DNA of 63,951 nucleotides, counting the filler, from an uncultured Methanosarcinales archaeon (lineage in GTDB: Archaea; Nanobdellota; Nanobdellia; Woesearchaeales; CALCXY01): the NCBI GenBank assembly GCA_964385185.1. It is 4 parts of 4 records of this genome, joined end to end, with 100 filler letters (N's around TTAATTAATTAA, not from the genome) between each part and the next. Parts side by side here need not be neighbours in the genome. Positions count along the whole stretch, not along the records: positions 1 to 21,160 come from CAYLOA010000021.1; 3 more parts are not named here. One strand, given 5' to 3'. Shown here piece after piece: positions 9,001 to 12,000 of the stretch (position 1 is the first letter of the stretch; each line of letters starts with the position of its first letter). Position numbers: made by a program.

Positions 9001-12000
9001 GTTGTTAAAACTTCCAATATCTGAATCTACAAAAGACCGTTCTTCAAAGTACTTTTGGATTAAAATTTTTCCTTGATCAAGCATTGATAACACACCTATA
9101 GAATATTGTTTCTCCGACGTATGGATTTTGTCGGGTAATTTTGATAATATCTCCTTCTTTTGCTTTTAGATTAGCAATAGAAGCATCTTTAATATTGATT
9201 TTAGGAAGACTGATAGTAGTGATCTTGTAGTTTTCTAGCAGTTTTTCTTTCTCTTTTTCAGAAAGCTTCGCTTGCTTAGGTACAAGATAATGTTTCGTGA
9301 TATCAAATTTTGAGGCCATTTTTGTTTCTAAACGTTTGTGTTATTCGACAATCCCCTTTGTTATTTGGTATGTATGATCGTACGGGCCGGACGAGATTTG
9401 AACTCGCGACAGCTGGATTAAAAGTCCAGTGCTCTGTTGCCCACATTTGTTCCAGGCTGAGCTACCGGCCCATTACGCCCTGGCCGGGAAAATCTCATCC
9501 CCACGAACGTGGTGAATGTTTCGAACCCGGGTCGAAGCCTTACTTCCTGCAATTGAATGCAGTCGACAGGGCTTCATGATAGTTACTGCAGCTTGTCGCT
9601 GTGCCAGACTACACTACCAGGGCGAACGTCAGCAAACCTTCTACTCTTTAATAAACGTCTAATTAGACTCTATTAAGTGTGTAGAAAGATTTTTCTGGCA
9701 TTTAAGAATAGAGTAAAGAGCCTGTTTATAAAGCTTTCTCTTTTGTAACCTAAATTATACTATCTAGAAGAAATCACGTATTTCATGTACGGATTTAGAG
9801 TTTATGAGGTATTGATATATATAAATATTGTGGAGCTGGGTTATAATTTGATGCAAGATTTAGTAACCTTTCCTAATATTGAATTCCAAATTGTTCTAAA
9901 ATGTATTGAGAGACTTCACCTTTTCTTACTCCAAAATCAATTCTAATATTCATTTTATCCACACAATGTTTAAATTGACTTTTACTGTCAAGATGAAAGA
10001 ATTCCCTATAGGGAGTCAATCCCAGATAATGTGGTGGAACTATTGCATTAAAATCTAGTTGGTAAATATATTCTCTAGCTAATGAGTATCCGATTGTGTG
10101 ATCTAATTTGGCAGTCAATGAATTGGAAAAACAATCATGATCCAACCTGTCCCTATTTCTTTGAGAATCATTCCCATTCCTTGCAAATGCTAATCGCAAC
10201 ATAATGTATTCATCGATTGCTGCTATCATTTCAGTCATTGCCCCATTCGGTTGAGTGCCAAATTTTTGATGATAGGAAAAACCATGACAAAAATGACTTA
10301 CTTCTTCGAATACTGTTATCCAGGCGTCATGGGGTGTAACTTCTTCTGCTTCATTAAATTGATTGAGAACTTCTGGTTTAAAATAAATCATAGGAAGTAG
10401 ATCTCCTGTGAATTTATTTTGATTTAGGATAACACACCCGAGACAATTTGATAATCTTTCTATAATACCTGGGATAAATTTTTCAAGCCTAGGAAGAGAT
10501 TTATCAGTAATAAGATGATTTTTGGCATTTTCACCAATTTGGATATCATGCATTTTCTCAATTTGCGATTGTGCTAGATCTATAGCTTCGTAAATACTTG
10601 CCATTGTTGTCTATCACACCATAGATATATTTATTTATTGTTATTTATAATAAGAGAAAAATCCCTCCCCCCAGATTACTACGTTAAGTATGAATCCTGC
10701 AGGTTAACTAAGTAATGGAATGGTTTATGATGCAATGTGCGAAAGAGTTAAATACCTAATAAACAGAGAATTAATCAATGGTTAATAATATTTTGATTCA
10801 GGAGACTCCCAGTAGTAAAGTAACCATTTATACAGTAGTAAGTACTGTGATTAATCTGATTATCGGTGTGCTTATATTACTAATAAGTGCCATAGTAATT
10901 AAGGGAAAACTTCAAGTTGGAAATTATTTGATTTTTATTGTACCTTCTTTTGTCGTTATTGGATTGGTCGTAATAATTTTTCTTATTCTTCGAAGCAAAG
11001 ACAAAGAAGATTCTTCAGGTACACTACATATAATCTCTAAGGATGTTGCAGAAAAAGCACTCTTTATTATCAATGAACGTATAAAAAATTCTGAAAAGAT
11101 TACTCCTGAAAACCTTTCTAAATATATTAAAAAAATGAAGAAAAACTTAGCTAAATTAGCACAATCTTAAATTTTATCAACTTCTTCAAAAATTCTAAAT
11201 AATTGGTGTAATCCTAATCTAATCTTTTCAGTGAGTAAATATTCATCTGTTGAATGAGTTTTTTTGCCATCTGCAATCGCTATAGTGAGACTAGGTAATC
11301 CCAAACTAATTGGATAATTAGAGTCTGTACTTCCAACATCATCTATTGTAGGAATATCTAGTTCTTTATGTACACTTGTGATAATTGTTTTGAGTTGTTC
11401 ATTTTCCATATTTCCGCCAGGTCTATCACCCAATATTTTACTTTCAACTTTAACAGAAGTTACTTGACTAATAATTTCTTCAATCTCTTTTATTTTTTGT
11501 TTTAATATTTGACCATCAATAGATCGTACCTCAACACTAAATTCTGCTTTTTGTGGAATAGCATTAACTGATGTGCCCCCTTGAATTGTTCCTATATTAA
11601 AAGATGTTTTTGGATCAGAAGGATAATTAATATTAGAAATTTTCTTAATTATTTTTGTGGCTTCTATAATTGCATTAGGTTTTCCAAATTCTCTCCAACT
11701 GTGACCGCCTTCACCTATGATAGTTATATTACATCTATGACTGCCAACTACTGTCGTAGTTAATCTTCCAAGTTTATGTCCTTCTATTACAATATGTGCC
11801 TTGACTTTAGTTTTATCCACATTATCAAAATAATATTTCATCCCTCTCAGATTACCTAATCCTTCTTCTCCAACATTGTAGAGAAATACCATTGTATGTT
11901 TAGGAGTAATATTATTTTCTTTGATATATTTCATTAAGTAGAGCATTGCTGTATCACCTGTAGCATTATCACAAATGCCTGGACAATATATAATTCCTTT

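Follow-up and report, generated by a model that had tools for sequence, protein, structure and literature searches.

Organization of the locus

The window (the whole stretch of DNA analysed, 63,951 nt with filler included, whose numbering is used for the coordinates) derives from a tiny marine Woesearchaeota-type DPANN archaeon (G000; sister species, G001) and carries a tandem of tRNA-Asp(GUC) and tRNA-Lys(UUU) genes on the minus strand at 9623-9383, upstream of rpoH. A candidate A/T-rich, TATA-like box, TTTATTAAA (9647..9655, minus strand), was read by eye 24-32 nt 5' of the tRNA-Asp start, in line with the sequence and position usual for TATA boxes of archaea; a box likewise rich in A/T lies about as far from tRNA-Asp in the sister species.

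The tRNA-Asp gene spans 148 nt (9623-9476, minus strand) and is split by three inserts of 20, 23, and 30 nt, whose presence had been claimed in the first-pass annotation and was confirmed by the sequence and by ARAGORN after insert removal. Exon 1 (9603..9623), identified by BLAST, an exon scan, and ARAGORN after joining, comprises the acceptor 5' strand, the D-stem 5' strand, and the D loop to C20, and its BLAST piece q8-27 is conserved in relatives. Intron 1 (9583..9602) lies in the D loop at 20/20a and was delimited by the best bulge-helix-bulge (BHB) register and by ortholog comparison, which refined an earlier estimate of about 20-25 nt to exactly 20 nt. Exon 2 (9564..9582), found by BLAST, the exon scan, and ARAGORN, includes the D-stem 3' strand, the anticodon-stem 5' strand, and the anticodon loop to G37, with the anticodon GTC. 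Intron 2 (9541..9563) occupies the canonical 37/38 site, was defined by its exact absence from G001 and by its BHB register, and has the 23 nt originally proposed. Exon 3 (9520..9540), supported by the same three methods as exon 2, runs from A38 through the anticodon-stem 3' strand, the variable loop, and the T-stem 5' strand to A59 of the T loop. Intron 3 (9490..9519) interrupts the T loop at 59/60 and was placed by the minimum free energy (MFE) fold, compensatory changes, and covariation; its presence had been recognized before, and its length was corrected from about 28 to 30 nt. Exon 4 (9476..9489), read from the sequence, the exon scan, and ARAGORN, contains T60, the T-stem 3' strand, the acceptor 3' strand, and the discriminator G, and CCA is not encoded at the 3' end of the gene.

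A 4-nt spacer, TAAT (9472..9475, from the sequence), separates tRNA-Asp from the 89-nt tRNA-Lys(UUU) gene, which had been reported at about 9380-9470 with a 16-nt D-loop insert; the insert is there, and the borders were refined to 9471-9383 for the gene and 15 nt for the insert. Exon 1 of tRNA-Lys (9452..9471), identified from orthologs and by ARAGORN after joining, consists of the acceptor 5' strand, the D-stem 5' strand, and the D loop to G19, after which the intron (9437..9451) was set by its BHB register. Exon 2 (9383..9436), based on a sub-threshold RF00005 match and ARAGORN, holds the remaining D arm, the anticodon arm with TTT, the T arm, the acceptor 3' strand, and the discriminator G.

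Immediately downstream, and likewise on the minus strand, lies rpoH (RNA polymerase subunit H/Rpb5; 9077..9319; PF01191, E 3.9e-25), followed by rpoB, which was identified by the Rpb2 domains found in the ORF after rpoH. The neighbours of the tRNA pair are rpoH, rpoB, a peptidase, and an ORF of 243 aa with no Pfam match; a homing-endonuclease gene adjoining the locus was thus not borne out. An 89-aa ORF over the tRNAs (9310-9579, plus strand) had no Pfam match and was taken as mechanical.

Prediction of tRNA genes

Both ARAGORN and Rfam, the latter at its gathering score, were silent at 9380-9623, as had been said of tRNA-Asp; the one sub-threshold RF00005 match in the region scored 27.3 bits (9390-9444), and the genes are invisible with respect to these two tools only. 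When the inserts were cut out by script, ARAGORN called tRNA-Asp(gtc) of 75 nt and tRNA-Lys(ttt) of 74 nt, neither of which was called from the uncut sequence, and when only the D and T inserts were removed it called Asp(gtc) with i(41,23). A canonical cloverleaf and the conserved tRNA bases thus return once the inserts are gone, and the joined tRNA-Asp is identical to the intronless orthologs of two relatives at 73/75 (L016) and 72/75 (L020) positions. What hides the genes from standard finders is their division into pieces by short introns that are predicted to be protein-spliced.

No other tRNA-Asp(GUC) or tRNA-Lys(UUU) was found in this genome, which was scored as 100% complete, and the claim of a single tRNA-Asp gene held. 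The pair fills a decoding gap, as the genome would otherwise seem to be without tRNA-Asp and a UUU-anticodon tRNA-Lys, and it shows that annotation with ARAGORN and Rfam gives too low a count of tRNAs in Woesearchaeota. The three-intron state is not unique to Asp, in that tRNA-Ala(UGC) on contig C11 carries three introns at the same sites. The tRNA-Gly(GCC) proposed on contig C6 became callable by ARAGORN after single BHB-guided removals, in 6 variants. For tRNA-Asn, whose absence among the calls had been remarked on, a renewed hunt in the genome found none; ARAGORN 'Asn' calls in two relatives (L005 and L010) were rejected as tRNA-Tyr(GUA) with an intron. A strict scan of the genome for tRNA-Leu(UAA/CAA/UAG) found none, and a looser one in which a 37/38 intron was permitted returned noise only. 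Four class II tRNAs of the genome have GAA or GAU as their anticodon, and the class II tRNA on contig C18 had an ortholog in 0 of 40 relatives.

Predicted splice motifs

The spacing expected of a BHB, i.e., two 3-nt bulges on opposite strands with a 4-position helix between them, is exact in all four inserts, and EndA is known to cleave after the second base of each bulge. Asp intron 1 has 3/4 pairs in the central helix and an inner helix of 4 bp, was the top register of all tried, and on removal leaves a mature D loop equal to that of the intronless orthologs. Asp intron 2 has 3/4 central pairs (one G.A mismatch) and a 5-bp inner helix, with none better among 121 registers, and Asp intron 3 has 2/4 central pairs (two Watson-Crick) and a 5-bp inner helix. 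The Lys intron has a complete central helix (4/4) and an inner helix of 2 bp, so that the central helix is imperfect in three of the four inserts, namely all those of Asp. The outer helix is the anticodon stem or the T stem for Asp introns 2 and 3; it is weak in the D-loop introns (one G.U pair or mismatch(es) before the D stem), which are therefore relaxed motifs under the strict hBHBh' definition.

Among 20000 shuffles of each insert, the observed central plus inner pairing was reached 14 times for Asp intron 1, 33 times for Asp intron 2, 127 times for Asp intron 3, and 21 times for the Lys intron. The predicted fold of pre-tRNA-Asp had a z-score of -4.49, with 0/200 shuffles equally stable, and that of pre-tRNA-Lys a z-score of -2.95. 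In the MFE fold of pre-tRNA-Asp, a 7x7 internal loop lies between the T stem and a hairpin formed by the T-loop intron.

BHB registers were also scored at homology-fixed cut points for the 27 anticodon- and T-loop introns present among 28 Asp orthologs, using a score that counted the outer tRNA stem as well and so favours the true register. By this score 21 of the 27 introns had no better register out of 121, and a higher-scoring alternative existed for 6; central-helix pairing was 4/4 in 15 introns, 3/4 in 11, and 2/4 in one. The D-loop cut placed after GGC and before CTATCAT ranked first at 4 of the 8 loci and within the top three at 7. The cut points inferred from intronless orthologs coincide with the geometry of 3-nt bulges and a 4-nt helix, and in this, as in their behaviour between the sister species, the inserts act like BHB introns of archaea. 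It is extremely improbable that they are instead retained as extra arms of an expanded mature tRNA: the inserts of the Asp precursor do fold into stable hairpins, as such arms would, but their borders sit exactly at the cuts predicted for EndA, an insert between G37 and A38 together with one in the T loop would abolish anticodon-loop and T-loop function, and the tRNA-Asp genes of relatives contain from 0 to 3 inserts in all combinations.

Comparison with related genomes

The Asp-Lys tandem recurs in relatives, and the three insert sites of tRNA-Asp are shared by many of them, with every combination represented and all three filled in 3 of 28 orthologs. In G001 the 23-nt insert at 37/38 is precisely absent, the D-loop insert retains its hairpin stem with a different loop, and the 30-nt T-loop insert is kept at the same length, with both partners changed in compensation at four pairs (4/22, 5/21, 6/20, and 10/17). 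The Lys insert of G001 is 21 nt long at a site identical to that of the 15-nt insert here, and this D-loop site is occupied in 10 of the 15 Lys orthologs found. Intron positions had been described as unstable between the sister species, which the missing 23-nt Asp insert bears out, as does tRNA-Gly(UCC), with its intron at 37/38 in this genome and a D-loop insert instead in G001.

Covariation was assessed in 16 distinct 30-nt homologs of the T-loop intron, in which 74.6% of the cells assigned to pairs were paired vs 62.6% after shuffling (0/500 shuffles reached the observed value), and the covariation score was 0.352 vs 0.163 after shuffling (again 0/500), with slid controls at ≤0.233. The sole non-pair at T54-i28 among these introns is that of G000. 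Structure, and not sequence, is conserved between homologous introns. The weak central helix of the T-loop intron is what might be expected if one or both genes were decaying pseudogenes whose inserts are junk that is never removed. Such decay is very improbable, as these are the sole Asp(GUC) and Lys(UUU) genes found in a genome scored as 100% complete, their exons are near-identical to orthologs in other families, the insert structure has been maintained through compensatory change, and the same three sites are filled in many relatives.

Splicing endonuclease and ligase

The host encodes both EndA and RtcB. The EndA gene (C9:38106-38636) specifies 176 aa, with an N-terminal domain (PF02778, residues 8-62) and a catalytic C-terminal domain (PF01974, residues 82-168), in a frame that is 241 aa from stop to stop and 237 aa from the first start codon. 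That this is the only splicing endonuclease gene, as previously claimed, agrees with the single genome-wide match to PF01974 and likewise to PF02778. A paralog search gave next-best matches of E 0.69 (phmmer) and E 0.97 (order-wide HMM), and neither a second (beta) subunit nor a fused two- or three-unit gene was found in the 85 contigs with PF01974, PF02778, phmmer, and the order-wide HMM. Of the 41 genomes of the order, several of which are on 1-4 contigs, 40 gave one strong EndA match. The RtcB ligase gene (316.9 bits) lies at a contig edge (C28:9-746).

The solved structures most similar to EndA were 5x89, 3iey_A, and 1a79. All 31 aligned EndAs of the order keep the length, the KPGEDH loop, Y112, H122, and K153, and the last three, the catalytic Tyr-His-Lys triad, align with the triad context of 1a79. 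The L10 loop, known in its acidic form as a dimer-dimer contact in the chain carrying the active site, reads VDDEGD here vs VDADGD in 1a79, with D161 and E163 invariant, and is shortened in N. equitans alpha (SDK). EndA lacks insertions with respect to 1a79, and at the Lys-rich K93-R97 loop before His the N. equitans alpha chain is the longer by 6 residues. Judged by its sequence, the enzyme is of the M. jannaschii alpha4 kind, with a similar length, and carries none of the loops of the broad-specificity class (CSL/L1, ASL/L2, or N. equitans-type L3). The one conserved Lys of its short loop, K117 (kept in at least 90%), may have a loop-like role. The earlier label 'alpha-type' says nothing yet on the oligomer.

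It could be argued that EndA is not a lone homotetramer and that a divergent or unassembled second structural subunit broadens its specificity in an (alpha-beta)2-like manner. This would accord with the fact that M. kandleri 5x89 and N. equitans alpha 3iey_A, which rank highest by sequence among solved relatives, are both heterotetramer subunits, with an assembly in 85 contigs, and with the partly relaxed D-loop and T-loop motifs. We nevertheless regard it as unlikely: the EndA query does detect both N. equitans beta (E 5.9e-13) and, at 49 bits, the EndA-like unit of M. kandleri, and a comparable paralog should therefore have shown up in the profile, phmmer, and order-wide HMM searches, all of which came back without one; the match above the cut-off is a single one in 40/41 genomes of the order; and the L10 loop resembles that of M. 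jannaschii, unlike that of N. equitans alpha.

The locus very probably represents two working tRNA genes, Asp with three BHB introns and Lys with one, served by a single EndA and by RtcB. BHB geometry, the sister-species comparison, and the single-gene searches agree with the first-pass proposal that one EndA would splice these introns. The anatomy of the genes, the exact borders of the inserts, the conservation of their structure, and the single enzyme gene are shown directly; we infer the transcription, cleavage, and ligation of the precursors, the order of intron removal, and a homotetrameric EndA. Among sequencing runs, no RNA run containing the locus was listed, and two metatranscriptome contig sets from a sample positive for its DNA gave no match, a result that speaks neither for nor against the reading. 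The pair would be transcribed from the upstream A/T-rich box, and in the precursor the 3' part of each intron would pair with the four exon bases preceding the 5' cut. This pairing would place both cut sites in 3-nt bulges beside a 4-position helix, with the intron hairpin closing the inner side. The single EndA would cleave behind the second bulge base on both strands, RtcB would ligate the exons, and CCA would be added afterwards, because none is encoded.

A further, tentative reading, which we consider possible and less than probable, is that a plain M. jannaschii-like alpha4 EndA without the three broad-specificity insertions is the sole enzyme of an order with D-loop, 37/38, and T-loop introns, some of which have a 2-bp central helix or nearly no outer helix. 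In that case what permits disrupted tRNA genes would be neither the type of subunit nor additional loops, and either exact bulge spacing would suffice for an alpha4 enzyme or the conserved KPGEDH Lys would be a fourth, insertion-free solution. The order offers a natural series for the range of alpha4-type EndA, with one tRNA in which three fixed sites hold from 0 to 3 introns in all and one highly conserved 176-aa EndA shared throughout.

Comparison with known systems

Multiple-intron tRNA genes have reportedly been described by Sugahara et al. A eukaryotic nuclear tRNA gene with the same three arms interrupted depends on another enzyme complex and is unrelated by descent. Closer at hand is the M. 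jannaschii EndA homotetramer (1a79), with which EndA aligns over 153 residues with one single-residue gap and shares the domain pair, the acidic L10, and the surroundings of the catalytic triad; the substrates of the M. jannaschii enzyme are canonical introns with a strict BHB, whereas the enzyme here must handle introns in the D loop and T loop whose outer or central helices are weak.

For DPANN archaea including one Woesearchaeota genome, Kaneta et al. (2018, NAR; PMC5829648) describe an alpha4-type EndA, many disrupted tRNAs, and incomplete tRNA sets, and tie the trait to an 'L3' loop common to N. equitans and ARMAN-2. The present case resembles those DPANN examples in its single-subunit alpha-type EndA, its greater share of non-canonical and multiple introns, and the gaps that standard prediction leaves in the tRNA set. 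As this kind of feature is already in print for DPANN, it is not new in kind, and the novelty implied by the first-pass annotation was too high. The present enzyme departs from the L3 link as drawn there, in that 31/31 EndAs of the order have the M. jannaschii spacing from Tyr to His and lack the insertion of N. equitans. Thermoproteales and ARMAN-2 also have tRNA genes with multiple introns (Fujishima et al. 2011, PMC3239211; Hirata et al. 2012, PMC3488258), and the latter paper defines the Lys/Arg-bearing loop next to the active site (N. equitans K93-R97). These genes resemble tRNA-Asp in that a tRNA may have as many as three BHB introns, in the D arm, the anticodon region, and the T arm, with 59/60 among the sites, and the enzymes of their hosts differ in being (alpha-beta)2 or epsilon2 with CSL or ASL loops, in place of the single short alpha subunit without such loops found here.

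Structure of the tRNA-Asp and tRNA-Lys genes

Contig C21 of the genome (1.30 Mb, 85 contigs, 35% G+C), which accounts for positions 1-21160 of the window only, carries on the minus strand a tRNA-Asp(GUC) gene at 9623-9476, made up of four exons of 21, 19, 21 and 14 nt with inserts of 20, 23 and 30 nt between them, and, after a spacer of 4 nt, a tRNA-Lys(UUU) gene at 9471-9383, in which exons of 20 and 54 nt flank a 15-nt insert. The first-pass annotation had described an Asp gene with three inserts and a Lys gene with one; this description is confirmed, with the insert lengths refined to these values, and the interpretation is supported. 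Both genes were missed by ARAGORN and by Rfam at gathering score, as had been stated for Asp, the Rfam tRNA model giving only a sub-threshold 27.3 bits on the 3' part of Lys. When the inserts were cut out by script, ARAGORN called a 75-nt Asp(gtc) and a 74-nt Lys(ttt). CCA is encoded by neither gene. An A/T-rich box was spotted by eye 24-32 nt upstream of the tRNA-Asp 5' end, and rpoH followed by rpoB is located directly downstream of tRNA-Lys.

Comparison with relatives

The region was compared by BLAST with 40 relatives, each representing a different family of the order, and was matched in 37 of 41 genomes, the genome under study included. The Asp matches were separate pieces, each corresponding to an exon, and these pieces abut in the relative G022. 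An intronless Asp adjoining Lys was called by ARAGORN in several relatives, and the joined Asp matched the intronless Asp of G022 at 73/75 positions and that of locus L020 at 72/75. The sharpest test of whether the inserts are real discrete units is that offered by the sister species, G001, in which tRNA-Asp is missing precisely the 23-nt stretch that separates G37 from A38, the D-loop insert is retained with an identical stem and a different loop, and the T-loop insert is retained at 30 nt, both bases having changed at four of its hairpin pairs with pairing preserved. The Lys insert of G001 occupies the same site and measures 21 nt (versus 15 nt here). The T-loop intron of G001 was also present on a public contig labelled Woesearchaeota.

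Site occupancy was counted in 28 Asp orthologs recovered by exon scan; two loci, L006 and L028, escaped the scan pattern, both with an intronless Asp according to ARAGORN. The D-loop site was occupied in 8/28, the 37/38 site in 9/28 and the 59/60 site in 18/28; eight orthologs had no insert and three (those of the genome under study, G003 and G027) had all three. For Lys, the D-loop site was filled in 10 of the 15 orthologs found.

A T-loop insert of exactly 30 nt in Asp 3' halves was also seen on public contigs L075-L090, its 59/60 position being assigned by homology. Their labels, as deposited, include Aenigmatarchaeota, Nanoarchaeota, Thaumarchaeota/Nitrososphaerales and Methanosarcinales, and the matched 53-nt stretch of L089, labelled Parcubacteria, is identical to L081; some of these labels may be binning errors. 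Separately, in seawater run X14, a related organism's DNA contig matched the Asp exons (window 9452-9593) and carried 116 other letters in place of the 50 around the T-loop intron, so that this relative, which shares the habitat type, has a longer T-loop intron.

Bulge-helix-bulge geometry and covariation

Cut points were set by homology alone and then tested against the bulge-helix-bulge (BHB) motif of protein-spliced archaeal introns, with two 3-nt bulges, a helix of four positions between them and an inner hairpin. In known BHB introns, cleavage occurs after the second base of the bulge. Among 27 anticodon-loop and T-loop introns of the 28 orthologs, no register of 121 scored above the homology-derived one in 21, using a score that counted the outer tRNA stem and is therefore biased toward the true register. 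The central helix had 4/4 pairs in 15 of these introns, 3/4 in 11 and 2/4 in one, which is the Asp T-loop intron of the genome under study itself. For the D-loop introns, the register with the intron between GGC and CTATCAT ranked first in four of eight loci and third or better in seven; at locus L019 it was outside the top four. In 20000 trials with shuffled inserts, the observed pairing was reached 14, 33, 127 and 21 times. Folded without constraints, the Asp precursor (z = -4.49) formed its acceptor stem, an anticodon stem bearing an intron hairpin, and a T stem that carried a symmetric 7x7 loop and a hairpin.

For covariation, species-representative genomes were scanned for 3' halves of tRNA-Asp whose T loop contains an insert of exactly 30 nt, and the ungapped alignment of the resulting 16 loci was scored on the structure derived from the genome under study. 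Paired cells amounted to 74.6% versus 62.6% after shuffling, and the covariation score was 0.352 versus 0.163 (slid controls, maximum 0.233); neither value was reached in 500 shuffles. Five pair types occurred at the first inner pair, which was formed in 14/16 sequences.

Other interrupted tRNA genes

Outside the window, a tRNA-Ala(UGC) gene of 167 nt (C11:~36479-36313, minus strand), with the identity pair G3.U70 and followed by a T run, has introns of ~32 nt in the D loop, 19 nt at 37/38 and 41 nt in the T loop, which are the three sites interrupted in Asp; Ala(tgc) was called by ARAGORN only after triple BHB-guided removal, in 5/2674 variants tried. The genes for tRNA-Arg(UCU) (C4:54246-54339) and tRNA-Arg(CCU) (C28:~5122-5215), both on the minus strand and outside the window, have a D-loop intron after ..CTGG; the ARAGORN call of a 94-nt Val(gac) at the former is a miscall of the intron-bearing Arg gene. 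The D-loop intron previously proposed for tRNA-Gly(GCC) at C6:~2328-2452 was upheld, as was the shift in tRNA-Gly(UCC), which is interrupted at 37/38 in this genome and has a D-loop insert instead in G001. Another tRNA-Gly(GCC), outside the window on a 3-kb contig (C57:326-401, minus strand), looks bacterial and, in contrast to the other tRNAs examined, has its CCA end encoded; this contig may be foreign, in which case the interrupted gene on C6 would be the archaeon's own. A 'tRNA-Asn(gtt) with intron' called by ARAGORN beside Asp in two relatives (L005:1209-1334 and L010:2004-2128) is tRNA-Tyr(GUA) with a ~50-nt intron, matching the Tyr gene at window 17040-17170. Genes for tRNA-Asn and tRNA-Leu(UAA/CAA/UAG) were not found in the genome.

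The earlier scan's 'four class II tRNAs', which are class II-like genes outside the window, correspond to C37:~6150-6258 (plus; anticodon loop TTGAAAC), C5:~5075-4945 and C11:~18345-18190 (both minus; TTGAAAA), with anticodon GAA, and C18:~10910-11026 (plus; TTGATAC), with GAU. Each combines a variable arm of 15-17 nt with G73 and an intron at 59/60 in the T loop, and the three viewed with upstream flank (C37, C5 and C18) have a Ser-like D loop and an upstream TATA-like box. The loops of these three were read alike by ARAGORN (T intron removed) and the Rfam tRNA model, and that of C11 by eye and loop scan only. Tentatively, these may be Ser- or Leu-identity bodies with Phe and Ile anticodons; an alternative, likewise tentative, is that they are additional tRNAs for Phe and Ile built on a class II body. 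The genome also has normal class I genes with these anticodons, tRNA-Phe(GAA) on C15 and tRNA-Ile(GAU) on C17, and the C37 orthologs in G001 and G003 also have GAA.

Splicing enzymes and comparison with known systems

In line with the claim of a single splicing endonuclease gene, one PF01974 and one PF02778 match were obtained in the genome, both within the same 176-aa ORF (EndA). No second EndA-like gene was detected, the next-best match having an E value of 0.69 with phmmer and 0.97 with an HMM built from 31 order-wide EndAs. The structural subunits of Nanoarchaeum equitans and Methanopyrus kandleri were both detected with this EndA as query, so that a beta subunit comparable to these would be expected to have shown up. 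A single match above cut-off was likewise obtained in 40/41 genomes of the order. The ligase RtcB is encoded at a contig edge.

Interrupted tRNA genes in DPANN are already a known kind of feature, to which the Asp/Lys pair adds an example: in Kaneta et al. 2018 (PMC5829648), tRNAs were predicted for one Woesearchaeota and other DPANN genomes, incomplete tRNA sets were taken as a sign of unidentified disrupted genes, and the trait was linked to the L3 loop. A narrow literature search found no published report of a three-intron tRNA-Asp in Woesearchaeota. Judged by length, the EndA described here has no insertion of the L3 type. It lacks the six-residue Lys/Arg-rich insertion that precedes the catalytic His in N. 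equitans alpha (loop as defined in PMC3488258). The same form is shared by all 31 aligned EndAs, in which the context of the catalytic triad is invariant. Aligned with the alpha4 enzyme of Methanocaldococcus jannaschii (PDB 1a79), it shows only one gap, one residue long, and its acidic L10 loop reads VDDEGD. There is a tension, in that a loop-less, M. jannaschii-like EndA must serve D-loop and T-loop introns with weak outer or central helices.
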